A model generated the notes under the pieces. The model saw only the letters and a program-made list of their open reading frames with translations. It had not been told where the DNA came from and did no database searches. 32,000 nt of DNA from Caldivirga maquilingensis IC-167 (GTDB lineage Archaea; Thermoproteota; Thermoprotei; Thermoproteales; Thermocladiaceae), in NCBI RefSeq assembly GCF_000018305.1, contig NC_009954.1, positions 1,140,001-1,172,000 on the forward strand, written 5' to 3'. Each line of letters opens with the position of its first letter. Positions within the stretch are counted from its first letter, which is position 1. Shown here piece after piece: positions 5,645 through 26,058 of this stretch. Made by a program: the position numbers and the translations under genes.

Positions 5645-8257
5645 ATGGATTGTACCTTTAAGGTGATTTCCGACTTAGATAAAGATCTCAGGTTCAGGAA
5701 TAGTGAAGTATGCTTAACAAATGATAATAGAATAATAGTGAGTAGTGATGGTAAGGAGGAGTCTTATCAATTAAGTGATGTGCAGAGGGTTTATGTTGAG
5801 GATGGTATAGGTATAGGTAAGCTTATCCTAGTTATGAAGAATGGTGAGGAGGTTGAGGCTGCTTACTTCACGAAGAAGCCTATTGAGGAGTTTAGGAGGT
5901 TTGCAATATTTGTTAATGGGCGTATAAACGGTAATGGGCATTATGAGGGTGTTACGTTAAGTAGGGAGAATAGGAAGCCTAACGTTAGGAGTACGTTGCT
6001 TTGGTTACTTAACTTCATGAGGCCTTACTGGCATAAGATGCTTATAGGGATTATATTATCTATAAGCATAGCAATGCTTAACCTGGTTCCACCCTACTTA
6101 CTTAAAATACTGATTGATAGCGTCTTCTTAACCAAGACCCACTCAATGAAGCTCTTCGTTAATTTAACACTAACACTAATAGGGTCATATATTGGGGTTA
6201 CGGCATTATCCATAGCCCAGAACTACATACTCAACACCGTTGGGCAGAGGGTTGTGAACGATATAAGATCCAAGGTTTTTGAGCATGTTATGAGGCTTTC
6301 AGCATCATTCATAGATAGGATGTCAACGGGTAGAATACTCTCAAGGCTAACTAATGATGCAGGCAACACTCAGTGGCTAATGGTCTGGGGCTTACCAACA
6401 CTCATAGTTAATATACTAACTCTAATAGGTATAGGTGTAATATTATTTACCATGGATGTTAAACTAGCCCTATTCGTACTACTGCCGACTCCAATAATAG
6501 CTTACATGATATATAGGTACCGTAAGAGGTCGCATAGGGTCTACCACAGGAATTGGAGGAGGAGTGCTGATGTAACCAGTGCTCTATCAGACACTATACC
6601 TAATTATATGGTTATAAAGTCCTTCGCCAAGGAGGATTATGAATCAAATAGGTTAAATGACTTACTCAATAGGCTTTATGAGTCCCAGGTTAAGGTAACT
6701 AAAATGAATGTTAGTTACTGGCCATTCCTAGGCCTACTTACATCATTATCAACAGTCATGATGTGGTGGTTTGGTGGTGAGCAGGTTATTGCAGGTACTA
6801 TTCAATTAGGTACCTTGACCGCGTTCGTATCCTACATGGCCCAGTTCTACGGACCTATAAACAACCTAAGCAACATAATACCGTTCATCCAGCAGGCTGT
6901 GACCTCGGGGGATAGGCTTAGGGAGATAATGGAGGCTGAGCCTGATGTTAAGGAACCTGAGAAGCCTAAGAGACCTGACTTGAAGGGTGATATACTGTTC
7001 AGTAATGTTTGGTTCAGTTACGATAAGTACACGCCTGTCTTAAAGAACATAAACCTGAGGATAAGGGTTGGTGAGAAGGTTGCAGTGGTTGGTAAGAGTG
7101 GTTCAGGGAAGAGTACGTTATCTAAGCTACTGCTTAGGATGTATGATGTTGACTCAGGGGAGATAAGGATAAATGGGGTTAATGTGAAGGAGATCGACCT
7201 ACAGTACCTTAGGGATAGGATAGCGTATGTGCCGCAGGAGGTGGCTTTATTCGATAGCACTGTGGCTTACAATGTGGCTTACGGTAGTGGGAGGCATGTT
7301 GAGCCTTGGGAGATCATAGCGGCTTGTAAGGCGGCTAGGATTCATGACGAGATTATGCAGTTGCCTTTAGCCTACGACACTAACCTGGGTGAGAGGGGTT
7401 CATCATTATCCGGCGGCCAGAGGCAGAGGATTTCAATTGCTAGGGCTATTATTAAGCAGCCGGATATCGTAATACTTGATGAAGCAACGTCAAACCTTGA
7501 CGTTATTAATGAGGCTGAGGTCTACAGAGCCATCATGAACCTGGCTAAGGGTAGGACTGCAATATTCGTTACTCATAGTTTCGTTGAGGTCATGAGTGCG
7601 GATAGGGTTATAGTTATGGCAAATGGGGAAATTGTAGAGGAGGGTAAGCCAAGTGAATTATTGGCTAAGAGGGGGCACTTCTACAATATGTTTAAGGATC
7701 AGCTTGAATTATTCACCGGTGAATTGAAGCTTCTTGAGAATGATGACGGTAATGGGAATGCCTTAACCCTTAGGGATTACGTTAAGGACGTAATGGTTGA
7801 GCCAGGTAAAGTTAAGGTTAAGCCAGGGAGTAGGAGGAGTCTAGTTACATTGATCGTTAATGGTGAGGTTTACAAGGATCTTAAACCAAAGTTACCGTTC
7901 CCAATATCCCAGCCTGAGTACGTCATATTCTATGATAAGGATGGTAAGGAACGCTTCATTCTGAGTAATTATAAGGCACTCGACGCTGAATCAGTTAAGC
8001 TACTTGAGACCGCAATAGCCTTGAATAACTTCAAGCCCGTAACGTTGAGTGTTAAGAGGATTGATGTTAAGGGTGATGAATTGGAGTGGCATCTAGTGAC
8101 TAACTACGGTGAGGTTGTGGTTAATACTAGGGGCAGGAGGAACGTGATGATCATGGATAGTAAGTTAACTTTAGTTGATATTCATGATAATATATATGAG
8201 ATTGACTTAAAGAGACTTGATAAGGATAGCCTTAAGCTAATAGCAGACACAGTGTGA
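5645..8257 (+). CDS. ABC exporter (fused permease + ATPase) with an extra N-terminal PH-like domain and a C-terminal DUF1854-like domain
   Basis: Walker A GKSGSGKST, Q-loop YVPQE, signature LSGGQRQR, Walker B IVILDEATS, H-loop FVTHS. A six-helix ABC_membrane-type region spans aa about 115-420. About 110 aa lie before the TMD and 180 aa after the NBD (nt 7715-8254). Confidence 0.9.
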   Translation: MDCTFKVISDLDKDLRFRNSEVCLTNDNRIIVSSDGKEESYQLSDVQRVYVEDGIGIGKLILVMKNGEEVEAAYFTKKPIEEFRRFAIFVNGRINGNGHYEGVTLSRENRKPNVRSTLLWLLNFMRPYWHKMLIGIILSISIAMLNLVPPYLLKILIDSVFLTKTHSMKLFVNLTLTLIGSYIGVTALSIAQNYILNTVGQRVVNDIRSKVFEHVMRLSASFIDRMSTGRILSRLTNDAGNTQWLMVWGLPTLIVNILTLIGIGVILFTMDVKLALFVLLPTPIIAYMIYRYRKRSHRVYHRNWRRSADVTSALSDTIPNYMVIKSFAKEDYESNRLNDLLNRLYESQVKVTKMNVSYWPFLGLLTSLSTVMMWWFGGEQVIAGTIQLGTLTAFVSYMAQFYGPINNLSNIIPFIQQAVTSGDRLREIMEAEPDVKEPEKPKRPDLKGDILFSNVWFSYDKYTPVLKNINLRIRVGEKVAVVGKSGSGKSTLSKLLLRMYDVDSGEIRINGVNVKEIDLQYLRDRIAYVPQEVALFDSTVAYNVAYGSGRHVEPWEIIAACKAARIHDEIMQLPLAYDTNLGERGSSLSGGQRQRISIARAIIKQPDIVILDEATSNLDVINEAEVYRAIMNLAKGRTAIFVTHSFVEVMSADRVIVMANGEIVEEGKPSELLAKRGHFYNMFKDQLELFTGELKLLENDDGNGNALTLRDYVKDVMVEPGKVKVKPGSRRSLVTLIVNGEVYKDLKPKLPFPISQPEYVIFYDKDGKERFILSNYKALDAESVKLLETAIALNNFKPVTLSVKRIDVKGDELEWHLVTNYGEVVVNTRGRRNVMIMDSKLTLVDIHDNIYEIDLKRLDKDSLKLIADTV

Positions 8258-9006: not shown

Positions 9007-10440
9007 CTACTCCACCTCCTCCCTAAGCATCCTCTTAATCATACTGTACTGCACCAGGGCCCATAGTGCCCTAGCACCCCTATCTGGTGTTGCGTAAACT
9101 GGTATTCCATTATCCTCCAGGGCCTCATTGAACTTCTCCATCATTGCGCTACCGCCGAAGGAGACTACAACCATGGGTTTCCCATATCTTTTAGCATCAA
9201 TAATGTAGTTGACGAGGTTTGGGGTTAAGCCAGGTATCTGCATTAAGGCTACTATGAGGGCCATGTCAACGTAACTAGTGGGTAGGATTGAGTCAAGCAC
9301 TATCTTATAGTACTCATCAGTCGCACTACCGGTTACGTCAACCGGATTCCTAACTATTGCCAAGGGTGGTAGGAATTTCCTAAGCATTGATTGGATCGTT
9401 TCAGGTAATTCAGGAACTTCAAGACCAAGCATTGATAAGGTGTCCACTGCCTGAATCCCCATTCCACCGCTATCAGTAAGCACAAGCACCCTCCTACCCC
9501 TTGGTAATGGTTGCGTGGCTAAGGCCTTGGCTAAGTCAAACATCTCCCTAACACTATTAGCCTCAATTAAACCAGCCTGCCTAAAGGCACCCCTGTAGAT
9601 TTCATAGTCACCGGCTAATGCCGCAGTATGGCTTGCCACAGCACCTGCCGATGCCTTAGTTCTACCAGCCTTATAGACTATTACCGGCTTTATTTGAGTA
9701 ACCTTCTTAGCTGTTTCAAGGAATCTTAAGCCCTCGCCAGGGTACTTTAAACCCTCCATGTATATTGTAATCACCTTAACATTACTATTATTAGCCAGGT
9801 ACTCCAGTAACTCTGACTCATTAACATCAAGCTTATTACCGTAATTCACAGCTAAACCTATGCCCAGTCTCCTCCTTGATGCCCAGTCAAGTATCGCCGC
9901 TGCAACCGCCCCCGACTGGCTTATTAAGGCTATTGGGCCCTTAGGCGGCCTACCCATCCTATCCTCAGGTAGGAAGAAGGTGTCGAGGCCATTATCAGCA
10001 TTATAAACCCCTATGCAATTTGGGCCAAGAACCCTAACCTGAGTGTTCTTAACAATTTCCCTAACCTCATCCTCAAGTCTCCTACCTTCATCCCCAACCT
10101 CACTGAAGCCACCGCTGATTATTATTAATGCCTTAACATTCTTCTTCACAGCCTCAGCGGTAACCTGGGGGACCACGGGGGCTGGTACAGCTATTACTGC
10201 TAAGTCAACTTCATCATTCACCTCAGTGATGCTCTTATAGCATTTAGCACCATTTATTGAATCATACCTTGGATTAACTAGAATAACCTTCCCCTTAAAT
10301 TTACTCAGTAAATTACTCATTATGACGTAACCAACATGACCCGGCTTAGGTGTCGCCCCAATTACTGCAACCGATGATGGGTAAAACAATGCCTCAATCC
10401 CCCCTTTACTGACTGCTTCCCTGGTTTGTTCAATAACCAT
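9007..10440 (-). CDS. acdA: ADP-forming acetyl-CoA synthetase, alpha subunit (CoA-binding / succinyl-CoA-synthetase-like)
   Basis: Contains the CoA-binding segment VAVIGATPKPGHVG, GPNCIGV, SQSGA and a phosphohistidine-loop-like AVASHTAALAG. Length is 477 aa. A TATA-like TTTAAATATATT lies about 30 nt upstream. Confidence 0.85.
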   Translation of the reverse strand: MVIEQTREAVSKGGIEALFYPSSVAVIGATPKPGHVGYVIMSNLLSKFKGKVILVNPRYDSINGAKCYKSITEVNDEVDLAVIAVPAPVVPQVTAEAVKKNVKALIIISGGFSEVGDEGRRLEDEVREIVKNTQVRVLGPNCIGVYNADNGLDTFFLPEDRMGRPPKGPIALISQSGAVAAAILDWASRRRLGIGLAVNYGNKLDVNESELLEYLANNSNVKVITIYMEGLKYPGEGLRFLETAKKVTQIKPVIVYKAGRTKASAGAVASHTAALAGDYEIYRGAFRQAGLIEANSVREMFDLAKALATQPLPRGRRVLVLTDSGGMGIQAVDTLSMLGLEVPELPETIQSMLRKFLPPLAIVRNPVDVTGSATDEYYKIVLDSILPTSYVDMALIVALMQIPGLTPNLVNYIIDAKRYGKPMVVVSFGGSAMMEKFNEALEDNGIPVYATPDRGARALWALVQYSMIKRMLREEVE

Positions 10441-10538
10441 ATAGTACTAAATAGTTACTAGTGGTTTAAATATATTCTCACTCCCTTAAACACACATTAT
10501 ACCCTTCTGCGAAGGGTTTATTTAAAGGGGCAAGTATT

Positions 10539-11663
10539 ATGGCTGCAATGAGTCAGCATAGTGAGGTAATGGGTAACATTGACTATGTTGGGTTCTATAA
10601 GGATGAGTTAACGGATTACTACGTGTACAGTACCCTTGCTAGGGTTGAGAGGAATAAGGATAGAAGGAGCGCGTTAATGGAGATTGCCTCAACAGAACTT
10701 AGACATGCTAAGTATTGGGAGGCAAGGGCTAGGGAGTTAGGGTTAAGTGTTGGTGAGTTTAAGGTTCCGTGGCTTAAGATTATTTTCTACCTAACCCTAA
10801 GGCTACTCTTCGGTCTTGCAGTTGTTATTAGGCTTAGGGAGAGAGAGGAGGATGAGGCTATAGTAAGGTATGTTAACGCCAGGGATGTTGTTAAGGATCC
10901 TGCGCTTGATGAGATAATTAAGGATGAGGTAATACATGAGGATTACTTCATAGAGGAGGCAACTAAGATGAGTGAACGCTTCAATAATATTAGGGACTTC
11001 ATATACGGTATGAGTGATGGCCTAGTTGAAGTAATGGCAGCATTAGCCGGATTAGTGCCCGTTGTAGTTAACCCACTGTTAATAGCCATGGCCGGCTTAA
11101 TAGTTGGTGTTGCCGGTACAATATCAATGAGTATAGGAGCCTACATGTCTGTTAAGGCTCAGTCCGAGTTAATGAACTACAGGGTGAATAAGGTTAAGAC
11201 AGCCCTCAGGGTAATGCCCATTAGCACCGTTACCGATAAGGTACTTGACATTTTAAAAAGCAGCGGCGTACCCGAGGAGAAGGCTAGGAGTATTGCAAGG
11301 GAATTAAGCGAATATAAGGATGCGGTATCGGACATGGTTATAACAAGGGAATTAGGCTACGTGGAGTCCACTGAGAATGCCGCTAAATCAGCCGTGAGCA
11401 CCGGTGTATCCTACATAATCGGCGCTGCCTTAGTCATATTACCGTTCCCAACCATTGGATTAGTGAACAGGTATGCGGCATTATTCACGTCAATAGTACT
11501 AATGATTATAGCTACATCAGTGGCCGGTGTATTCACTGCAGCTTCAAGTAACGCTAAGATGCGTAGTGTTATTGCGAGGAATGTTGGATTAAGCCTACTT
11601 GCATTAACGGTAACATACCTAGTGGGTTCACTGGCCCATGCCCTAGGCGCCACGGTTACGTGA
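10539..11663 (+). CDS. VIT1/CCC1-family Fe/Mn transporter with an N-terminal ferritin/rubrerythrin-like domain
   Basis: The N-terminal part has EL-H and E-x-x-H helices (ELRHAKYWE, DEVIHEDYF). The C-terminal part has GMSDGLVEVMAALAG and several TM helices. The second in-frame ATG at 10548 fits the upstream TATA spacing better. Confidence 0.8.
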   Translation: MAAMSQHSEVMGNIDYVGFYKDELTDYYVYSTLARVERNKDRRSALMEIASTELRHAKYWEARARELGLSVGEFKVPWLKIIFYLTLRLLFGLAVVIRLREREEDEAIVRYVNARDVVKDPALDEIIKDEVIHEDYFIEEATKMSERFNNIRDFIYGMSDGLVEVMAALAGLVPVVVNPLLIAMAGLIVGVAGTISMSIGAYMSVKAQSELMNYRVNKVKTALRVMPISTVTDKVLDILKSSGVPEEKARSIARELSEYKDAVSDMVITRELGYVESTENAAKSAVSTGVSYIIGAALVILPFPTIGLVNRYAALFTSIVLMIIATSVAGVFTAASSNAKMRSVIARNVGLSLLALTVTYLVGSLAHALGATVT

Positions 11664-11750
11664 AGCAGGCTTAATGATTCATAACTGGAGTTATAATCCA
11701 ACATTAGGCCAGTACCCTCTTAAGGCATTTAAGTCCAAAGTTAACACCTA

Positions 11751-11774
11751 ATTAGGTTCATCAATGAACCTAAT
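11751..11774. repeat. 24-bp palindrome ATTAGGTTCAT-CA-ATGAACCTAAT (11-nt perfect arms, 2-nt centre)
   Basis: Read directly and reverse-complement checked. It lies 88 nt after the VIT1 stop and about 130 nt before the orphan gene start. Confidence 0.9.
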
Positions 11775-11870
11775 GTAGCCTCAGTCATGGATGCCGCCCA
11801 AGTGGCCTCATAAAGGTGAGTAACATCCAAGGCCTCGGCATACAGCTCTTAAGGCGTGAGGAATAGTGTC

Positions 11871-11885
11871 AAAAGCTTTAAATTC
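11871..11885 (+). promoter_or_regulatory. putative BRE/TATA element for the 11903 orphan gene (AAAAG-CTTTAAATTC)
   Basis: TTTAAA at 11877-11882 lies 21-26 nt upstream of the GTG start and is preceded by a purine-rich stretch. The spacing matches other leaderless genes in the window. Confidence 0.4.
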
Positions 11886-11902
11886 TTATATTTCACTTCT
11901 AC

Positions 11903-13525
11903 GTGACAAGCGTGATATTCGAGGTTCCCTCCTATTTACGTCTTAAGGATTCTTTGGAGGGCAATGAGCCGGTTATTGTAACCGGTCTACCTCGTAGCGG
12001 TATATCCACAGCCCTCAACTGGGTTTTAAACACCAGTGACGCCGCGGGAATTGGTAAAACAGGTTTTAAGATTATGGAGTTACCCAAAGCGTTTAATGAA
12101 GATGCTCAACTGTCTATGCTTCTTTCCAAGCTCAAGGGGCAGCTCGATCAGCATGGGGAACGTTTTATCGTTAGTGGTAGAAGCAATGTTGTAGAGTTTG
12201 TGTTCAGTAACGGGGGCAACGTACGTGGTGGCAGGGATTGGTTTATAGGCATTTATCAAGGTCTAAGGAGCTTGAGACGTAGGCTTCTTTCCCTCTCCTA
12301 TGAATGGGAGCCGGTGATTGTTGATGGTTTCCGCACATACATGTTCTCCTTCAGTAAGGAGGATGCCGTGATCTTGGCTGAACACTTGGGTGTTAGAAGG
12401 GATAAGGATGTTGATGCTGTTTTAGAGTACTCGAGCTTTAAATCACTTTTCCGCGGGGTGTATTTGCCTGGGCTCATTGTTGAGGGAACACGCAAAATAC
12501 TTAATGGTGAAGAACTCTTCGAGCAGAATGAGAGAATCGGTGAGTCGGAGCGCATGTTTGTGTTCAGTGCCCCTCTCCTTACCTCCGCAGCAGAGGCTTT
12601 TGCTGAATCACCGGTGGAAGCCGCGAGTAGTATTGCGGAAACCGTGGGTAGGTTTATTACGGGCATGGGGTTAGCTTGGGAGCTGGGTGTGCTCTTCGCT
12701 TCATTTTTTGGCTTTGGATCATTCTCAGAGAAACGTTTTGAAAAGGAACTTGTCAGCGTGGGTAATGCTTGGCGCACGCTTCCAGAAGACAAGCGTGAGG
12801 TGATTGCGAGTGTGTACGATCGCGAATTAAAACTTATCCCAGGCACCTCAAGATCGGTCTTAGATGACCTCTTCCTAGGGGTTTCAACTCTCAGATCTAA
12901 AGTTGAACAGGCGTGGTCGTATATTAGACAGGTGGAGGTGCATCAGACCTACGACACACTACTTTCTAGACGGGACGCCTCTCTTGAGCTTGTGAAAATT
13001 ATTAAACAGTCGCATACAGGGGTTCAACTCACTTCCAAGGGTCGTGGAAGTGAAGTGGCTGAGCTTACCTCGTTGATTAGAAACGCAAAGGAAGAGGTAC
13101 GCATTTGGAGACAGGGCTTTTCAGCAGTGAATGAGCTCATCCCCGTTTTTAAAGAGTTCTTAACACGGCCAAACACCGAGATAAAGGTCTTACTAAAGAT
13201 TGATCAATTCTCACTGCAAAACGCATCGCGTCTACTCGAACTAGCTAGGGTATACCCTAACCTAGAATTAGCCCACTTTGATTCATCCCTAAGAGGAGAA
13301 ATATACGATCAGCTTAAGCTACGCCTCGTAACGAAGACTCCGCGCACACCTACCACTATAGATGACCCTCGCGTCCCAGGCACCGACTCAGAGTTTTACT
13401 ATGCTGTTTGGCTCACAGAGGACAAGGAGTGGCTTGACTTCGCGCTGGGCCTCTGGGATTACTGCTGGTCTAAGGCTGTTCACGACGTCGAGTCAGTTAT
13501 ATCCACATTCAGAGAACTAATGTAA
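11903..13525 (+). CDS. orphan 540-aa protein: degenerate P-loop-like N-terminal region, one central hydrophobic helix, uncharacterised C-terminal alpha/beta region; foreign codon usage
   Basis: A long ORF with a GTG start and its own TATA. Contains PVIVTGLPRSGIST (Walker-A shape with Ile in place of Lys), EPVIVDGF (Walker-B-like) and FITGMGLAWELGVLFASFFGFGSF (aa 251-274). I recognise no family. Confidence 0.75.
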   Translation: MTSVIFEVPSYLRLKDSLEGNEPVIVTGLPRSGISTALNWVLNTSDAAGIGKTGFKIMELPKAFNEDAQLSMLLSKLKGQLDQHGERFIVSGRSNVVEFVFSNGGNVRGGRDWFIGIYQGLRSLRRRLLSLSYEWEPVIVDGFRTYMFSFSKEDAVILAEHLGVRRDKDVDAVLEYSSFKSLFRGVYLPGLIVEGTRKILNGEELFEQNERIGESERMFVFSAPLLTSAAEAFAESPVEAASSIAETVGRFITGMGLAWELGVLFASFFGFGSFSEKRFEKELVSVGNAWRTLPEDKREVIASVYDRELKLIPGTSRSVLDDLFLGVSTLRSKVEQAWSYIRQVEVHQTYDTLLSRRDASLELVKIIKQSHTGVQLTSKGRGSEVAELTSLIRNAKEEVRIWRQGFSAVNELIPVFKEFLTRPNTEIKVLLKIDQFSLQNASRLLELARVYPNLELAHFDSSLRGEIYDQLKLRLVTKTPRTPTTIDDPRVPGTDSEFYYAVWLTEDKEWLDFALGLWDYCWSKAVHDVESVISTFRELM

Positions 13526-13700
13526 ATAGAGATGCAGTTAAAGAGTAACGAAGGCCACACTGTGTAAGTGAATTTTCTTAATTGCATCGTGGTTTACACC
13601 GCTCGCCTACTTCTAATCACTCTATTTATTAAGTAGGGAAATTAAGTGTTACTGCAGTTTATCATGAGATTAAATTACTAGTGATGTGCAGTATGGTGAT

Positions 13701-14630
13701 TCACTTAATTGAGTAAAGTTCAACATCACCCTCCTTAATAATCCTAAGCAGCCTCCTCCTCTTATAGAATCTTATTATAGCGTTGGCTGTTATTAAGGCC
13801 TGTGGGTACAGGCTCCTCTTAACCCCATACTCATGTATCAGGTTATCCGCAAACTCGCAGATTGTTAATGGTCTTTCACTGAGGAGTACCTTGGCTATCC
13901 CCAGTAGCCTATTCATAGCCTCAATTGAGGCTTCAATAAATTCTTCAACTTCATTCCCCTCAAGAACCCTCTTGGAGAATGGTAGGTAATTATGCCCTGG
14001 TACAAGCATCTTAACCTTAATACTCTTAAGCGTATTCAGTGTCTGTAAGTAATCGTCAATCGATGAAACCTGTGGTATTGAATCTGTTGTACTCAACCCC
14101 CTTATGCCTAAACCCTGCACTGCGTCTGATGTAAACATTACATCATCCACAATACACACCACAGTACCTGAAGTGTGGCCGAAGGCTTCAATACACTTAA
14201 CGCCATTTAAATTAAGCATACCTCTAAAGGATTCGTGAACCACTGGTGAACCAACTTTACTCCTAAAGTCTCTTATGAAGGATTCCGTGAATTCAGGGGT
14301 GAAGCATGACCTATATTTAAGTGAGAAGAAGGAATCCACGTTAATGACATTATTGTATAAGAACCCTCTGGCAGCCTCATGCGCAATCACCCTAACACCC
14401 CTACTGGCTAAGTAACCGCTTCCACCTGCATGATCCTCATGGGGATGCGTTATTATAGCCACCTTAGGTAGCCCTATTACCTTAACCACATCCTCAATTA
14501 TGCTTGAGGTTGATGTATCGAGTAATACTCCACTATCCTTTACGTAAACCATGTTTAACTCAACATCACCGTAATACGTACCTACGAGACTAACCCTACT
14601 GGTTAAATCCCTAATAGTAACCTCAACCAT
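13701..14630 (-). CDS. metallo-beta-lactamase (MBL) fold hydrolase
   Basis: Contains the HxHxDH motif ITHPHEDHAGG, a later GHTSG, and PGH. Length is 309 aa. Confidence 0.85.
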   Translation of the reverse strand: MVEVTIRDLTSRVSLVGTYYGDVELNMVYVKDSGVLLDTSTSSIIEDVVKVIGLPKVAIITHPHEDHAGGSGYLASRGVRVIAHEAARGFLYNNVINVDSFFSLKYRSCFTPEFTESFIRDFRSKVGSPVVHESFRGMLNLNGVKCIEAFGHTSGTVVCIVDDVMFTSDAVQGLGIRGLSTTDSIPQVSSIDDYLQTLNTLKSIKVKMLVPGHNYLPFSKRVLEGNEVEEFIEASIEAMNRLLGIAKVLLSERPLTICEFADNLIHEYGVKRSLYPQALITANAIIRFYKRRRLLRIIKEGDVELYSIK

Positions 14631-15812: not shown

Positions 15813-15998
15813 ATGGAGTTGGATCCAAGTGTAGCACGCTTAGCATATACGCTATCTATAATATTCCTAGTCCTGGCTCTCTTCGCATTACCCTTTGATA
15901 TTCATGTTGAGGCAGCCTTAATAATCGACCTAGTGGTAATAGGAATGTTGGCTGCATTCCTAGTATTCATCATAGTTAACGTTAAGAGGAGTTCATGA
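15813..15998 (+). CDS. small hypothetical membrane protein (two predicted TM helices)
   Basis: A 61-aa ORF with two hydrophobic stretches and no recognisable family. It is supported only by ORF length and position upstream of the rSAM genes. Confidence 0.35.
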   Translation: MELDPSVARLAYTLSIIFLVLALFALPFDIHVEAALIIDLVVIGMLAAFLVFIIVNVKRSS

Positions 15999-16090: not shown

Positions 16091-17596
16091 ATGTCCTCAA
16101 TCATGGATAATATTACTAATAAAGTCTCTGAGAGAAGTGGTACGGGTGCATTAATCGCCGCCATTAGGATGCTTAATAGGGGTGCTGTACGTCATGCATT
16201 ATCAGCCTTAATGAAGGAGGTTGAGTTTAATGGTGAGAGGAAGCCACTGCTTGAGTGGGTTATGGCGGCCTACGCTGGTAATGAACCCTGCCCAACCATT
16301 GCTCATTTGGCGTCACCGTTCTTTAAGGCTATGGTTAAATTAACCATGAGCTACTTCCATGCTGATGAGGATGAGGTTAAGCAAATACTGAGTGACCCAG
16401 CTATTAGGAGGGGTATTGTTACTACACTTAAAGGTATTGCACTATTCGGTGTAACCACGCCTCAGAAGCTTCCAGCCCCATTCTTCATAGTTTGGAACTT
16501 CACTAACCTATGTAACCTTAAGTGTATTCACTGTTACCAGAATGCTGGTAGGCCATTACCAAATGAATTAACCCTAGAGGAGAAGCTTAGGGTTGTTAAG
16601 GAGCTTGATGAGGCTGGTGTACCGGCAATAGCCTTATCAGGTGGTGAACCAACAATACACCCAGACTTCTTAACAGTATTAAATGAAATGAATAGGAGGG
16701 GTTTCTACTCCGCAGTGGCCACTAATGGGCTCATGTTCGCTAATATGGAGTTCGCTGAAAGGGTTAAGAAGGCTGGGTTAAGGTACGTGGAGATTAGTAT
16801 TGATGCTGCTGATCCAGCAGTCCACGATAAGTTTAGGGGTGTTGAGGGGGCTTGGGATAAGGCGGTTAGGGGGCTTATTAACGCCGTTAAGTTAGGCTTC
16901 AGCACTGCCTTAGCCTTCACAGTGACTAAGACTAATATTGACCAGGTTGATAAGATACTTGACCTAGCCCAGGAAATAGGCGTGAGGAGGGTTGTCTTCT
17001 TCAACTTCGTCCCAGTGGGGAGGGGTCGTGAAAACCTGGATATTGACCTATCCCCCGAGGAGAGGGAGAGTTTCATGAGGCATATTTACATGGAGATGAA
17101 GAGGAGGAACATGGAGATAGTCACCACGGCACCATACTACGGTAGGGTTGTTAACCAATTAAGTAACAATAAGGACAATGCCCCAACACACTTCGTGATC
17201 GCCAATGACCCGATAACAAGGGAATTAACAGAATTCATCGGTGGCTGTGGAGCTGGCAGAATATACGCGGCCATTGAACCAGAAGGCACTCTCACTCCAT
17301 GCGTCTTCTTACCTTACCCAGTGGGTAACCTTAGGACTAAGTCGTTCTGGGATATTTGGATGGATCCGTTTATGGAGAATTTCAGGGATAGGGGTAGGCT
17401 TAAGGGCTTCTGTGGTCAATGCCCATATAAGATGATTTGCGGTGGTTGTAGGGCTAGGGCATACGGCTACTTCGGCGATGTCCTAGCCCCGGACCCAGGC
17501 TGCATATATAATTCCAAGGAGTGGAGGAGGCTTAAGGAGGAGGCTGAGCAGTGGGCTAAGATTAAGGTCACTGCTTCTAAGCTAGGGTTTAAGTGA
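16091..17596 (+). CDS. radical SAM protein with a C-terminal SPASM domain and an N-terminal extension of about 120 aa
   Basis: The CX3CX2C motif CNLKCIHC lies at nt 16511-16534, followed by GGEPT. The SPASM cysteines are GGCGAGRIYAAIEPEGTLTPC, CGQCPYKMICGGC and PGC. There are 11 Cys in total. Confidence 0.9.
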   Translation: MSSIMDNITNKVSERSGTGALIAAIRMLNRGAVRHALSALMKEVEFNGERKPLLEWVMAAYAGNEPCPTIAHLASPFFKAMVKLTMSYFHADEDEVKQILSDPAIRRGIVTTLKGIALFGVTTPQKLPAPFFIVWNFTNLCNLKCIHCYQNAGRPLPNELTLEEKLRVVKELDEAGVPAIALSGGEPTIHPDFLTVLNEMNRRGFYSAVATNGLMFANMEFAERVKKAGLRYVEISIDAADPAVHDKFRGVEGAWDKAVRGLINAVKLGFSTALAFTVTKTNIDQVDKILDLAQEIGVRRVVFFNFVPVGRGRENLDIDLSPEERESFMRHIYMEMKRRNMEIVTTAPYYGRVVNQLSNNKDNAPTHFVIANDPITRELTEFIGGCGAGRIYAAIEPEGTLTPCVFLPYPVGNLRTKSFWDIWMDPFMENFRDRGRLKGFCGQCPYKMICGGCRARAYGYFGDVLAPDPGCIYNSKEWRRLKEEAEQWAKIKVTASKLGFK

Positions 17597-17601
17597 GGTG
17601 A
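17595..17601 (+). promoter_or_regulatory. Shine-Dalgarno GAGGTGA for the downstream rSAM gene
   Basis: GAGGTGA overlaps the TGA stop of the upstream gene and lies 4 nt before the ATG at 17606, which implies one transcript. Confidence 0.6.
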
Positions 17602-17605
17602 TTAA

Positions 17606-19018
17606 ATGAGGGTGCTGTTGGCGGTTCCACCGGGTATTGATAAAATGGAGATATATAAGGTCCTTGGACTCAGGGCACCACCACTTGGGTTAGCTTGGAT
17701 TGCAGCGGTCCTTGAGAAGGCTGGTCATGAGGTTAAGATAATTGACTCACCCACTGAGGGTATTGACTTAGGAGCCTTCATCAATGAGGTTAAGGCATGG
17801 AGCCCTGATATTGTTGGCTTAACATCATTAACCCCAACAATATATAAGGCTTATGACACAGTTAAGGCAATTAAGGAGTATGATAAGGACTTACCTGTAA
17901 TAATGGGTGGACCACATGCATCATTCATGTATGAGGAGGCTTTAAATAATGGGGTTGACGTAGTGGTTAGGGGTGAGGGTGAGTACACTACCCTGGATCT
18001 CGTTAACACCATTGAGAAGACTGGGATGAATAGGAATGGGCTTAAGGAGATTAACGGTATAGTATTCAGAAGTGGTGGCGAGATCATTAAGACGAGGGAT
18101 AGGCCACCAATAAGGAACCTGGATGAGTTACCATTTCCAGCACGCCACTTATTACCAATGGATAAATACACCATATTCGGTAAGCCAATTAAGATAATTC
18201 ACGTAATGGCCAGTCGCGGTTGCCCATATGGTTGCTCCTTCTGCTCAACCTCATACTACTGGGGTAGGTTAATTAGGTATAGATCCGCTAAGAATGTTGC
18301 AGATGAGATTGAGGACGCTGTTAATAAGTATGGTGCAAACACAATAGTCTTCACTGATGATGAATTCACCCTAGGTAAGAGGTTTGTTTACGAATTCCTA
18401 AGGGAACTGGAGGAGAGGAAACTGGACATAAACTTCTCCTGTGGTTCAAGGGTTGATACCATTGATAAGAAGATGATGAGTGAGTTATTAAGGCATGGGT
18501 GCACTGCACTGTACTTCGGTGTTGAGTCAGCAAGCCAAGACACAATAAATAGGATTGGTAAGAAAATAACCATTGAGCAGGCTATTAAGGTGTTTGAATG
18601 GGTTCATGAACTTAAGGTTAATGCAGTGGCGTCATTCGTCATAGGCTTCCCGTGGGAAACCATAGATGACATGAAGAATACTGCTAAATTCGCGGTTAAG
18701 CTTAACCCATCATACGCTCAATTCACGGTAGCTACACCATACCCTGGCACACCCCTTTACTACCAGGCTGTTAACGAGAATCTCATTGAGGATTGGAACT
18801 GGGAGCATTATACAACATTAAGGGCCATCATGAGGGGTTACAGGTTCACTAGGCAGCAGGCTGATAAGATGCTTCAATACGCCTACAGGGTCTTCTACCT
18901 AAGGGCAGGATTCCTAGCGAAGGAGCTGTTAAGCGGTAGGTTAAGCATGGTTATTACAGCTATTAAGAATTCAATTGTCCCATGGTTCATTGATAGGTTA
19001 ATGAGGCGGAGTGAGTAA
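17606..19018 (+). CDS. B12-binding-domain radical SAM protein (class B rSAM)
   Basis: The N-terminal cobalamin-binding-like Rossmann region is VLLAVPP...PPLGLAWIAAVLEKAGHEVKIID...PDIVGLTSL. The CX3CX2C motif is CPYGCSFC. Length is 470 aa. Confidence 0.9.
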   Translation: MRVLLAVPPGIDKMEIYKVLGLRAPPLGLAWIAAVLEKAGHEVKIIDSPTEGIDLGAFINEVKAWSPDIVGLTSLTPTIYKAYDTVKAIKEYDKDLPVIMGGPHASFMYEEALNNGVDVVVRGEGEYTTLDLVNTIEKTGMNRNGLKEINGIVFRSGGEIIKTRDRPPIRNLDELPFPARHLLPMDKYTIFGKPIKIIHVMASRGCPYGCSFCSTSYYWGRLIRYRSAKNVADEIEDAVNKYGANTIVFTDDEFTLGKRFVYEFLRELEERKLDINFSCGSRVDTIDKKMMSELLRHGCTALYFGVESASQDTINRIGKKITIEQAIKVFEWVHELKVNAVASFVIGFPWETIDDMKNTAKFAVKLNPSYAQFTVATPYPGTPLYYQAVNENLIEDWNWEHYTTLRAIMRGYRFTRQQADKMLQYAYRVFYLRAGFLAKELLSGRLSMVITAIKNSIVPWFIDRLMRRSE

Positions 19019-19796: not shown

Positions 19797-22334
19797 TTAA
19801 CTATGGCGCATGAGTAGTGATATTATGAGACCCATTATGATGGCTAATGCATATATTGTGAAAATATACCATGGGATTCCAAACACACCTGAGACAACGT
19901 AGACCACAATGGGGCCTACGTAAGCATCATTAAGCCACTCATTCCCAAGGTACTTAACGTAAATAATCCAGGGCCCAGCCTTATCAGTAACTATCCTTAA
20001 TACCGTTTCATTACTCACCACAGTATTAATACTTCTTACTCTTCCACTTGAATTAACCAGTATTGATGCATTAGCCCTTGTTGGTAAATTATTATTAACC
20101 TTAATTAGTATGAGCATTATTATTGAGCTGCCTGAGGCTATTGTACCATTATTAAGTACCCTAATTGATACCCTTGGATTAGCCTTAATTACCTTCACAA
20201 ACTCATTGAGGCCACATGATAGGTAATTATTGTTACCGGGCCAGTATACGGTAATATTGTATAATCCTGGGTAAGGTGGTTTATATGATTCTTGAAACTT
20301 ACCGTTAGTTACATAGGCTATGATTAATGACTTATTTACGTAGATTGGTATTTGACTAATTGGTGCAGTTACATTACCACTTATTGAGAGTTCACTCCCC
20401 ACTATGAATGATCCATTAATACTCATTCTAATTGTGCAGGGAGCCTTCAACACCATTAGTGATGCCTCAGCCACTGATGGTAAGTAATTACGGGAACCTG
20501 GGTAGTATATTGTTAAGTTAAAGTAACCTGCCTCATTAGGTTTCACATGCGTGTAACCTGTACCATTGATTACATTAATGTAACCTATGAATGATTTATT
20601 TAAGTATAGGTAAACTGAGGCTGTGATTCCTGGATTTAAGTTAACCATTACTGTTAATGAATCCCCGTACACTATGGTTGAGTTAACTAAGTAACTTATA
20701 TTGACCTTAGCCGGTGCAACAATTACCTTAGCTTGGCTAGTTATTGAGAATGATTGCGATGGGGAGTATGTTACGTACACTACGTAAACACCAGTATCAT
20801 TAGGCTTAAATGTTAATGAGGCGTAACCACTTGAATTCGTGGTTATTGAGCCTAATGCAACGTTAACCCCATTTAAGGTTACTTGGTATTGAAGGGTTTG
20901 ATTAACTATACCGTATCCCTCAGCTGTTAAGTTAACTAGCATACTGGCTAATTCCCCGTAAGTTATGTTAAGTAACTCAGGTGTAATACTCATGGTTGGC
21001 TTGAGTACGTTAAGTAGAATTATGGTGCTGTAGTAGTATGAGTATCCCCCGTAATCAACCATGATTAGAGATACGTTTAAAGGCATTGGGCCGGGTTGAA
21101 GCGCCAGTAAACCAACTTCAAATCCTCCATTACCCCTCAGGGCCACTGGGCTACCAGTAATGCTTACTGGGAACTGGGGTGATAATGGGGAGATGTACAC
21201 CTTCTCATTAACTATTGGGGCTGGTACATTAACATTAAAAACGATCCTAGAATTAACACCAAGCGGCACCGTTGAGTTAGGTGATGTAATCAATGGTACC
21301 GGTTCATACGCATTTATGCTGAATTTAACCAACCCAACAGTGCAACTACCGTACATGAATACTACTTGAGCATTATAAGATCCAGTGTCAACTATGAGGA
21401 AGCTATTACCGGTAACTTGATTATTAATCATGGTTTCCATGGTTAAGTTACTTAAGTATGAACTATAGAAGTTCACGCTATGACCAGTTACCACGGGGAT
21501 ACTTGAACCGTTAGTAACCCTTAAGGATGCTGAACCATAGGTAACGTTAATGGAGTACCATGGTCTCACTGAATTAACCTGAAACATATACGTGGAGTAA
21601 GCCTGCCCATTGAATGCTAATTGAGCTGAAACCGTACCATTCATGAATGTTAACGGTTCCCGGAACACGTACTTACCATTAATGGTAACGTTATAAGATG
21701 AGTAAACACCACCCATATTACTAACCAGGTTTAATTTAACAGGTTCAGCTGAGTAAAGTATAAGGTTTAGTATCGGTGATGAGTAAGGTATAATTACCTC
21801 AGAGTTATTACTGGGTGACGTGGTTAAGCCGCATTGAGTCAAGTATGCGTTAACTATTGTTGGTTTATACATTATTAGGTTATAGAATCTGCTTGTTGTG
21901 AAGTTCATTACACTTAAGGTAACGTTAATGGAGTAGTTACCATATGGTAGTGAGTAGACTGGTACATTAACTAATTGATAGGAACCCGCAGTGAGGTTGA
22001 GTAGAGTTGAGTATGAGTATACGTTGCCAATCCTAATACTTAGCATTGTACTCTCATTAATGGGTTCAGTGGAATTAATTATTGATGCGTTAATTAGCAG
22101 GGTGAAGTAGTTTAAGGGGGTTGACACCACGTTATTAACCGGGTACTTAACCCAATTCTCATACGTTAAGCTGATTAAATTAACACTAAGAGTAATGTTG
22201 AGCACGGGCTTAGTGTAGTTGGTTATGTGGGTTGCATTAGTTAAGCCACCGGGCGGGTTAAGCTGCGGATTAGCTACAATAGCCAGTGAAGCCATTGCAA
22301 GCACTAATATTAGTAATAGTTTCCTCATATTCAA
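19797..22334 (-). CDS. large secreted, C-terminally membrane-anchored surface glycoprotein with tandem Ig-like modules (possible S-layer-associated protein or adhesin)
   Basis: Signal-peptide-like N-terminus MNMRKLLLILVLAMASLAIVA. The C-terminal TM helix is IPWYIFTIYALAIIMGLIISLL. I hand-counted about 36 N-x-S/T sequons. The motif G-x-Y-x-[IL]-T-[IV]-Y-[WY]-P-G-x-x-N-Y recurs. Confidence 0.8.
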   Translation of the reverse strand: MNMRKLLLILVLAMASLAIVANPQLNPPGGLTNATHITNYTKPVLNITLSVNLISLTYENWVKYPVNNVVSTPLNYFTLLINASIINSTEPINESTMLSIRIGNVYSYSTLLNLTAGSYQLVNVPVYSLPYGNYSINVTLSVMNFTTSRFYNLIMYKPTIVNAYLTQCGLTTSPSNNSEVIIPYSSPILNLILYSAEPVKLNLVSNMGGVYSSYNVTINGKYVFREPLTFMNGTVSAQLAFNGQAYSTYMFQVNSVRPWYSINVTYGSASLRVTNGSSIPVVTGHSVNFYSSYLSNLTMETMINNQVTGNSFLIVDTGSYNAQVVFMYGSCTVGLVKFSINAYEPVPLITSPNSTVPLGVNSRIVFNVNVPAPIVNEKVYISPLSPQFPVSITGSPVALRGNGGFEVGLLALQPGPMPLNVSLIMVDYGGYSYYYSTIILLNVLKPTMSITPELLNITYGELASMLVNLTAEGYGIVNQTLQYQVTLNGVNVALGSITTNSSGYASLTFKPNDTGVYVVYVTYSPSQSFSITSQAKVIVAPAKVNISYLVNSTIVYGDSLTVMVNLNPGITASVYLYLNKSFIGYINVINGTGYTHVKPNEAGYFNLTIYYPGSRNYLPSVAEASLMVLKAPCTIRMSINGSFIVGSELSISGNVTAPISQIPIYVNKSLIIAYVTNGKFQESYKPPYPGLYNITVYWPGNNNYLSCGLNEFVKVIKANPRVSIRVLNNGTIASGSSIIMLILIKVNNNLPTRANASILVNSSGRVRSINTVVSNETVLRIVTDKAGPWIIYVKYLGNEWLNDAYVGPIVVYVVSGVFGIPWYIFTIYALAIIMGLIISLLMRHS

Positions 22335-25910: not shown

Positions 25911-25984
25911 AGCGGCGTAGGGAAGCCTGGTATCCTGCGGGGCTCATAACCCCGAGGTCGGTGGTTCGAATCCACCCGCCGCTA
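25911..25984 (+). tRNA. initiator tRNA-Met (anticodon CAT), no intron, CCA not encoded
   Basis: Hand-folded cloverleaf: acceptor AGCGGCG/CGCCGCT, D arm GGGA/TCCT, anticodon arm CGGGG-CTCATAA-CCCCG (CAT at 25945-25947), T arm GGTGG-TTCGAAT-CCACC, discriminator A. The A1:U72 pair and three G:C pairs at the base of the anticodon stem mark an archaeal initiator. Confidence 0.93.
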
Positions 25985-26058
25985 CTTCCCGTATGCGTAA
26001 TGCTCAGCTTAAGTGAATTCAACTTGTTTAATACATTATGTTGGTTTAGATTCATTGA

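Follow-up and report, generated by a model that had tools for sequence, protein, structure and literature searches.

STAND proteins carry an N-terminal effector, a central NTPase and a C-terminal sensor, and the nSTAND3 domain is the NTPase of Avs5 (10.1101/2025.07.08.663546). Members of the membrane-bound KAP and YobI/Tmn families of P-loop NTPases act in signalling or defence, PifA and Tmn in defence, and mutations in the Walker A motif of Tmn abolish defence (PMC13001434). TrmBL2 is made up of an extended winged helix together with a helix for dimerisation and a domain at its C-terminus, is tetrameric and is without the sugar-binding subdomain of TrmB; the C-domains of TrmB and TrmBL1 sense small molecules (PMC4877046). 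Here we describe a gene of Caldivirga maquilingensis IC-167 that lies in a 32,000-nucleotide (nt) stretch of contig NC_009954.1 (assembly GCF_000018305.1, positions 1,140,001 to 1,172,000 of the forward strand), hereafter the window, to which all plain coordinates below refer. Its product (ABW01923.1; WP_012186142.1; UniProt A8MDR7) was shown by comparison with its relatives to be built of two modules, an N-module (amino acids, aa, ~9-349) and a C-module (aa ~340-540); what appears to be new is an undescribed P-loop family together with its fusion to a TrmBL2-type domain.

The protein had no match among Pfam families at E values up to 10, and nothing significant was found in NCBIfam, in PDB sequences (phmmer) or in PHROGs; tblastn of phage genomes gave no match either. 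A word-indexed search of 5.8 billion proteins returned only the query protein itself, with no orthologue of 50-99% identity, and its use with profiles added 2-3 further sequences only. An exhaustive HMMER scan of 1.84 billion cluster representatives, on the other hand, revealed 26 relatives, 13 of them below 1e-10. The orphan status proposed in the preliminary description therefore holds for curated libraries and the word-indexed search but not for the exhaustive one, and by these alignments the gene is not a true orphan. One relative, P0002, matched along the full length (E 4e-107, 41% identity), and its complete form, located on metagenome contig L003, is 547 aa long. A C-terminal group of relatives, 195-335 aa in length, matched query aa ~346-540 only, and an N-terminal group of much larger proteins (900-1550 aa) matched query aa ~10-347 only, by their own N-termini. 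Since these relatives match either half only, the query is best described as a fusion of two separable modules. The two families, comprising 15 N-module and 14 C-module sequences, were aligned separately (A1 and A3 for the N-module, A2 for the C-module), a joint full-length alignment of both having been misaligned and set aside. The phyletic distribution of the relatives was extremely patchy. Genome contigs gave no match with the query, the source genome seemingly being masked in that collection, and only a Thermoplasmata locus with A4; metagenomes gave no match with A5 and one locus, L003, with A6; viral contigs gave none with A5 or A4. The sequences of A2 and A3 diverged too far to be scanned for by pattern.

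Homologues of the N-module (P0009, P0014, P0017 and P0019-P0028) were obtained from the exhaustive search and from a profile search. In the large relatives, Pfam placed an nSTAND3, AAA_16 or nSTAND_NTPase5 domain around residues 430-600 and TPR or HEAT repeats after it; the stretch homologous to the query, their first ~400 residues, was assigned to no family. The large relatives of nSTAND3 type that carry the N-module were archaeal, belonging to Thermoplasmata and Conexivisphaera. Alignments A1 and A3 revealed five conserved elements: 1) a Walker A motif VTGxPxSGK[ST], 2) a strand hhhELP, 3) a strand hhhh(E/x)GR(x/D)Y, 4) a YFPGLI motif, and 5) an uncharged Pro/Gly-rich segment followed by a charged/polar cluster and then by the strongest motif of the module, in which W290, D306, P313 and G314 are invariant and the model has a predicted local distance difference test score (pLDDT) of 82-94. 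The best-conserved parts of the module are its non-catalytic motifs, and all of the non-catalytic invariants are kept in the query.

When the N-module profile was aligned by hhalign with nSTAND3 cores taken from the same large proteins, the probability was 93.7% (E 1.9e-7, 100 columns), with hhhELP opposite the nSTAND3 Walker B (hhhDD/DLP) and hhhhxGR opposite the sensor-1 strand. The hidden Markov model (HMM) of A3 also matched the nSTAND3 region of P0020. On this alignment, Glu59 occupies the Walker B position and Arg93 is the sensor-1-like residue, both being retained; FIVSGRS, which had been considered as the Walker B strand, was rejected because hhalign makes it sensor-1 and puts Walker B at KIMELP. 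The AlphaFold model of the module, built on A3 (pLDDT 74; predicted template modelling score, pTM, 0.76), contained four parallel strands (24-28, 55-59, 87-93 and 144-148) alternating with helices and then a helical region, and the Foldseek lists for it contained AAA+/STAND proteins only (such as Avs5, RFC, MuB, CED-4 and Apaf-1). A parallel-strand core, a helical lid and profile similarity to the ASCE/AAA+/STAND division were thus all found. By these results the N-module is an undescribed AAA+/STAND-like P-loop family that is in none of Pfam, NCBIfam, PADLOC and PHROGs, and they agree with the earlier view of the N-terminus as a divergent, catalytically compromised STAND-like module. It was also noticed that family members have an acid at either of two alternative positions on the strand after Walker B, and that a subgroup (P0018, P0020, P0027 and P0028) reads SGKK in Walker A, is without the Walker B acid and carries R-[DE] on the next strand.

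The homologue alignment identified VIVTGLPRSGISTAL as the true Walker A position, at which the query reads G28-LPRS-G33-I34-S35-T36 and so has no functional GxxxxGK[ST] motif with its invariant lysine. Each of the eleven homologues that cover the site has lysine at the position of Ile34, as does the L003 orthologue, which reads VIVTGPPRAGKTT / VIVTGPPRAGKTTAI and has an intact GKT. Because this 547-aa orthologue, at 41% identity, keeps GKT, the loss of the Walker lysine is, as far as the alignments go, specific to the Caldivirga copy, which is probably catalytically dead. In addition, an acid is found on strand 4 at position 91 or 94 in 13/13 homologues and is missing from the query (S91, S94). 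The Ile34 codon (ATA, 12002-12004) is one transversion from AAA. Three independent Sequence Read Archive (SRA) assemblies (SRR253096, SRR9435970 and SRR9435971), all of the same strain, contained DNA 100% identical to the window, so a one-off sequencing error at Ile34 is unlikely. The replacement of lysine by isoleucine had already been pointed out in the preliminary description, whose quoted peptides all lie at the residues given for them, but two further motifs proposed there did not withstand the alignment. AAGIGKT (aa 47-53), taken for a second P-loop fragment, falls in a region that is variable and gapped, occurs in none of the homologues and is a chance motif. EPVIVDGF (aa 136-143), taken for Walker B, is unconserved and lies in the loop before strand 144-148, away from the Walker B position at Glu59. 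That neither was found even in the orthologue of 41% identity counts against both.

The hydrophobic segment in the middle of the protein, also pointed out before, proved to be real and conserved in the family. Its Kyte-Doolittle maximum over 19 residues was 1.56 (aa 251-269), and an equivalent uncharged run of 19-33 residues was present in 15/15 aligned members (maxima 1.44-3.16), followed family-wide by a cluster of charged or polar residues that is usually Lys/Arg-rich. Residues 227-273, spanning most of the segment, were helical in the model with pLDDT below 50. In P0018 the hydrophobic sequence suffices for two clear transmembrane helices. If the segment crossed the membrane once, the two cytoplasmic NTPase domains of the large relatives would come to lie on opposite sides of it, and a monotopic or re-entrant hairpin is therefore topologically consistent; we regard the segment as a candidate for such a hairpin or anchor, a buried oligomer interface being the alternative.

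For the C-module, the model built on A2 reached pLDDT 93.4 and pTM 0.89. The A2 profile matched TrmBL2 in the PDB (5BOX, E 1.3e-4, TrmBL2 residues 99-204 and 232-261), and TrmBL2 was also the top Foldseek match (E 5.8e-9), followed by NucT (8.9e-7), Nuc (4.2e-6) and TrmB (2F5T, 4.5e-5; 3QPH, 5e-4), with FAM83, vaccinia virus F13, PssA, PLD1/2, Zucchini and MITD1 also in the list. The module thus has both a phospholipase D (PLD) fold and a TrmB-type C-terminal domain, as had been surmised from its alternating strands and helices, and no HxK occurs anywhere in the query protein, nor does the catalytic pattern HxK(x)4D(x)6GSxN. The Trp-rich tail noted earlier forms the last strand and the C-terminal helix, and its W522 is nearly invariant. 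As a reference for the catalytic residues we used a genuine HKD PLD encoded beside P0004 (L007:4298-4819, motif HAKLIVIDHSIALVGSAN), to which the C-module aligned with an hhalign probability of 86% (E 5e-6; hmmsearch E 1.8e-4), and the alignment was extended by eye to map single residues. The query reads S462-L-R464-GEIY-D469...T-K478-T-P at this position: the HKD histidine corresponds to a variable column (Ser462), the lysine to an invariant Arg464, the aspartate to a nearly invariant Asp469 and the serine of GSxN to an invariant Lys478. Because the histidine is lost, the C-module is, judging from these columns, non-catalytic and derived from PLD, with a polar pocket that is conserved. That it acts as an effector, as proposed earlier, is unlikely, the HKD histidine being variable and the closest structure being the non-enzymatic domain of TrmBL2. 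In P0003, P0006 and P0007 the domain is preceded by two transmembrane helices, and in other relatives by a region of ~100 aa whose only matches, sub-threshold throughout, were consistently to winged helices (Hop2, RPA32C, Z-alpha, HTH_24 and Mnd1); fusions of this kind would fit an oligomerisation or ligand-sensing domain. Coordinates of the features, and the loci of relatives, are collected in Table 1.

Table 1. Positions of features of the Caldivirga gene in the window, and loci of relatives with their surroundings
Feature	Position or locus	Strand	Basis, or neighbouring genes for relatives
Putative archaeal transcription factor B recognition element (BRE)/TATA element CAAAAG-CTTTAAAT	11870..11883	+	sequence reading against archaeal promoter consensus
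Complete ORF, 540 aa, GTG start	11903..13525	+	open reading frame (ORF) reading; identical DNA in three SRA assemblies
N-module, aa ~9-349: AAA+/STAND-like P-loop core, then helical region	11927..12949	+	homologues, alignments, model
Degenerate Walker A VIVTGLPRSGIST, Ile34 replacing the invariant Lys	11972..12010	+	alignment
Glu59 in KIMELP, Walker-B-equivalent position, retained	12077..12079	+	hhalign and alignment column
Strand 4 RFIVSGRS, sensor-1-like; Arg93 kept	12161..12184	+	hhalign, alignment
Hydrophobic Gly/Phe-rich segment, aa 251-275, then charged EKRFEK	12653..12727	+	hydropathy and alignment
Strongest N-module motif, W290..LP.E.RE.IA..YD306....L.PG314.S...L..LF	12758..12877	+	alignments
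C-module, aa 340-540: two helices and TrmBL2-type PLD-fold domain	12920..13522	+	A2, model, Foldseek
Degenerate HKD region HFDSSLRGEIYDQLKLRLVTKTP	13274..13342	+	A2 columns, mapping to genuine HKD PLD
T-rich stretch GAATTTTCTTAATTG, 3' of the stop codon	13571..13585	+	sequence only
Full-length orthologue	L003		RHH and PIN-like pair, TnpB
P0003	L004-L006		TraC-like, Prim-Pol, UvrD + PDDEXK element
P0004	L007, L008		D12 methyltransferase, AbiTii (weak), PAS-HATPase_c sensor kinase, HKD PLD, ATPase_2 (as on L007)
P0006	L009, L010		His_Phos_1, near IS21
P0014 (Conexivisphaera calida BBE42418.1)	L011		second nSTAND3-TPR paralogue with partial, split N-module; TnpB
P0020 (Thermoplasmata metagenome-assembled genome, MAG)	L001		housekeeping genes

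The reading frame was intact over 540 codons; the NCBI model ABW01923.1 starts instead at the GTG at 11912, giving 537 aa, and the BRE/TATA-like element lies ~20-30 nt upstream of both candidate GTG starts. The T-rich stretch beyond the stop codon is a possible archaeal terminator, on a weak inference. The G+C content (GC) of the ORF (0.476) was the highest among the genes of the window, and its codon-usage distance (0.124) was the largest among those longer than 300 aa (others 0.065-0.10), which is mild evidence of foreign origin or low expression. An antisense ORF of 182 aa, Ser/Pro/Thr-rich and without other support, lies inside the gene (12298-12846, minus strand) and is in all likelihood a shadow ORF, the coding strand being GC-richer. 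Two short contigs identical to the window, L016 from SRR9435971 (window 10621-13545) and L015 from SRR9435970 (window 10190-14570), cover the gene, and one SRA contig contains part of VIT1 and the whole ORF, ending 20 nt past the stop codon. If SRR9435970 and SRR9435971 are RNA-seq runs, this would indicate expression and co-transcription with VIT1.

Several relatives had arrangements of their own. P0004 is a stand-alone pseudo-PLD copy located directly upstream of a detectably paralogous 173-aa HKD PLD (HAKLIVID...GSAN), and the pair is kept on two contigs (L007:3588-4819 and L008:260-1491), which suggests a pseudo-PLD/PLD heterodimer or regulator pair. In Conexivisphaera calida (AP018732.1), a second nSTAND3-TPR gene (L011:2571-5658) lies directly upstream of P0014. 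Its N-terminus matches the distal half of the N-module only (HMM positions 197-316) and the Walker A region is matched by another ORF, of 118 aa, so that the arrangement has the appearance of a tandem paralogue, beside TnpB, whose N-module is split or decaying. P0027 (L017:783-3026) is a 435-aa protein with the N-module only, ending 12 nt before a convergent DDE transposase gene, and may be a large STAND protein cut off by insertion of an insertion sequence (IS).

The reading that we tentatively prefer, with somewhat less than even confidence, is that the two modules make up a pseudo-NTPase which oligomerises, is associated with the membrane and stems from signalling or conflict modules; from these comparisons we infer its membrane association, its oligomerisation, its sensor/output logic and any biological role that it may have. 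In the large relatives the N-module is N-terminal to nSTAND3-TPR/HEAT, which is the usual position of a STAND effector. With the effector N-terminal and the sensor C-terminal in STAND proteins, the N-module would take the output position, and the STAND-TPR part or the pseudo-PLD domain would be the regulatory or sensing part; by this analogy, the N-terminal sensor and C-terminal effector of the preliminary description would be reversed. As to the mechanism, the hydrophobic segment would be a monotopic hairpin that tethers the protein to the membrane on its cytoplasmic face, and the C-module would drive formation of a dimer or tetramer, or else sense a ligand via the conserved R464/D469/K478 pocket. 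Where the P-loop of a family member is intact, binding of nucleotide by the N-module would then gate a membrane-associated output. In C. maquilingensis this switch would be broken by Ile34 and the missing strand-4 acid, so that the protein would be a scaffold or pseudo-enzyme that works independently of NTP, or else a disarmed copy.

Several findings weigh against this reading. The Foldseek matches of the N-module were all non-significant (best E 0.007-0.014, TM-score about 0.3). The Walker B acid was present in only 6/14 members of the N-family and one subgroup has GKK for GK[ST], and with catalytic motifs so loose family-wide the idea of an NTP switch may fail even for the relatives. In the query, the hydrophobic segment is borderline for a membrane helix at its hydropathy of 1.56, and Glu260 lies inside it. 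Both families are small, His458 is absent from the closest orthologue, and the oligomerisation and ligand binding ascribed to the C-module are extrapolated by analogy from TrmBL2 and TrmB.

A different possibility, an unproven minority hypothesis that we consider unlikely, is an active single-gene defence or abortive-infection protein, in which the C-domain or the linker would sense infection and the N-module with its segment would perturb the membrane after the manner of KAP/PifA, YobI/Tmn or pore-forming STAND effectors. It would account for the N-module standing at the effector position of nSTAND3-TPR proteins, nSTAND3 being the Avs5 NTPase (10.1101/2025.07.08.663546), and it has a precedent in the defence exerted by the membrane P-loop NTPases PifA and Tmn (PMC13001434). 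The surroundings of some distant domain relatives, though only some, are mobile or defence-like: P0004 has AbiTii (weak), a D12 methyltransferase, an HKD PLD and ATPase_2 around it, P0003 lies in a TraC/Prim-Pol/UvrD-PDDEXK element, the L003 orthologue beside an RHH/PIN-like pair and TnpB, and the tandem Conexivisphaera paralogues beside TnpB. That no gene of the window has a higher GC, and none of the long ones a more atypical codon usage, is in keeping with it as well. The loci in Caldivirga and in the Thermoplasmata MAG, however, were made up of housekeeping genes, which together with the absence of phage or PHROG relatives argues against defence. PADLOC gave no significant defence match for the query, the only one being DrmC, a PLD-fold protein (E 0.018, aa 371-461), and for the large homologues only weak generic P-loop or TPR matches. 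Moreover, the C-domain is without the catalytic histidine, and the Walker lysine, which proteins of the Tmn type need, is lost here; Walker A mutants of Tmn abolish defence (PMC13001434).

That the gene is instead a decaying or dead remnant, horizontally acquired and deprived of its NTPase with too little time for frameshifts to accumulate, we judge improbable. The change from Lys to Ile took a single nucleotide (AAA to ATA), the strand-4 acid of every homologue has gone as well, GC and codon usage are atypical and no close orthologue of 50-99% identity exists among the 5.8 billion proteins; decay elsewhere in the family is suggested by P0027, which ends beside a DDE transposase, and by the Conexivisphaera paralogue, with its N-module split over two ORFs. 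Yet the frame of 540 codons is intact, the invariant non-catalytic residues W290, D306, P313, G314, R464 and K478 are all retained, and the spacing of the plausible BRE/TATA element is right. Pseudo-NTPases that have lost their Walker lysine are, moreover, frequently functional. It is very unlikely that the protein is a housekeeping membrane-associated sensor or scaffold whose TrmB-like ligand domain reports a metabolite, possibly in connection with the adjacent iron transporter VIT1 or the MBL hydrolase: small molecules are sensed by the TrmB-type C-domains of TrmB and TrmBL1 (PMC4877046), the gene lies among metabolic genes 240 bp downstream of VIT1 on the same strand, and one SRA contig spans both and ends 20 nt after the stop, but the neighbourhood is conserved in no relative, TrmB's sugar-binding subdomain is missing, just as it is from TrmBL2, and so patchy a distribution would be atypical for a housekeeping function.

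The genes around the ORF in Caldivirga encode an ABC transporter, the two subunits of an ADP-forming acetyl-CoA synthetase, VIT1, an MBL hydrolase, a 3-hydroxyisobutyrate-type dehydrogenase and two radical-SAM enzymes, and are housekeeping genes; no paralogue of the ORF and no HKD PLD was found in the window. The ABC transporter (5645-8257; 870 aa, ABC_membrane and ABC_tran) is fused to a C-terminal DUF1854. The two radical-SAM genes are adjacent (16091-19018, plus strand; a SPASM protein of 501 aa and a B12-binding protein of 470 aa) and have a 61-aa hydrophobic ORF (15813-15998) just upstream; the three could form a peptide- or cofactor-maturation cassette. On the minus strand, an 845-aa ORF with a TTG start (19797-22334) gave only a weak Big_3_5 Ig-like match and had the lowest GC (0.388) and GC at third codon positions (0.378) in the window; it may encode a surface protein. 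A single tRNA-Met (CAT) at 25911-25985 was the sole Rfam or ARAGORN match in the window.

On a more far-reaching reading, which we think unlikely, the N-module would be a new class of membrane-inserting, nucleotide-gated output domain of archaeal nSTAND3-TPR immune-type receptors, with the Caldivirga type representing a second, STAND-independent control of it by a pseudo-PLD (TrmBL2-like) sensor or oligomeriser in place of the STAND-TPR part; the pairing with a genuine HKD nuclease on L007 hints, in this context, that the pseudo-PLD domain may regulate PLD nucleases too, by heterodimerisation. At all events, a hypothetical orphan has been turned into two traceable modules, one of them a P-loop family that has a hydrophobic segment built in and recurs where archaeal STAND proteins carry their effector. 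STAND and innate-immunity-like systems of archaea have been poorly characterised, and an output module directed at the membrane would help in approaching them. The TrmBL2-type pseudo-PLD domain emerges as a mobile building block, joined to probable winged helices, to transmembrane helices or to an NTPase-like module, with a range beyond transcription factors. Finally, the Walker-lysine-dead Caldivirga copy and the intact orthologue together constitute a natural experiment.

Comparison with the described systems gave the following picture. Like TrmBL2, the Thermococcales chromatin protein (5BOX/5BPD), the query ends in a PLD-fold domain and has no sugar-binding subdomain, with an identity of about 20%, but it has no N-terminal winged helix (no Pfam TrmB or HTH match) and carries a P-loop module of 340 aa instead. 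With the HKD PLD nucleases (Nuc, NucT and Zucchini; PLDc_2) it has the fold in common, as well as the Lys-equivalent Arg464 and the conserved Asp469, whereas in the query family the histidine is replaced by a variable residue and GSxN by xKxP; in this respect the C-module resembles the pseudo-PLD domains of FAM83 (DUF1669) and MITD1. The P-loop core is alignable with those of nSTAND3 (Avs5-like) and AAA+ proteins and is likewise followed by a helical region, the structural likeness being weak. The query differs from them in having no Pfam nSTAND or AAA match, no Walker lysine and no repeat sensor, and in the hydrophobic segment inside the helical part; a curated STAND model match combined with the tripartite layout was not found in it, nor was a Pfam or NCBIfam match to the archaeal ATPase ATPase_2 (PF01637). 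In the large nSTAND3 relatives, the N-module is additional to the true nSTAND3 domain, separate from it and upstream, and not a substitute for it. Membership of the KAP or YobI (Tmn) families was rejected, as neither KAP_NTPase (Pfam) nor the Tmn models (PADLOC) matched. The query appears to have one segment of ~25 residues, located after the strand core, whereas KAP and YobI/Tmn proteins have 2-4 clear transmembrane helices, located between core elements. Nevertheless, KAP proteins (PifA, Kidins220) and YobI/Tmn have in common with the query the concept of a P-loop NTPase physically tied to one or more hydrophobic segments, and by analogy KAP/PifA and YobI/Tmn may be regarded as its nearest functional counterparts.

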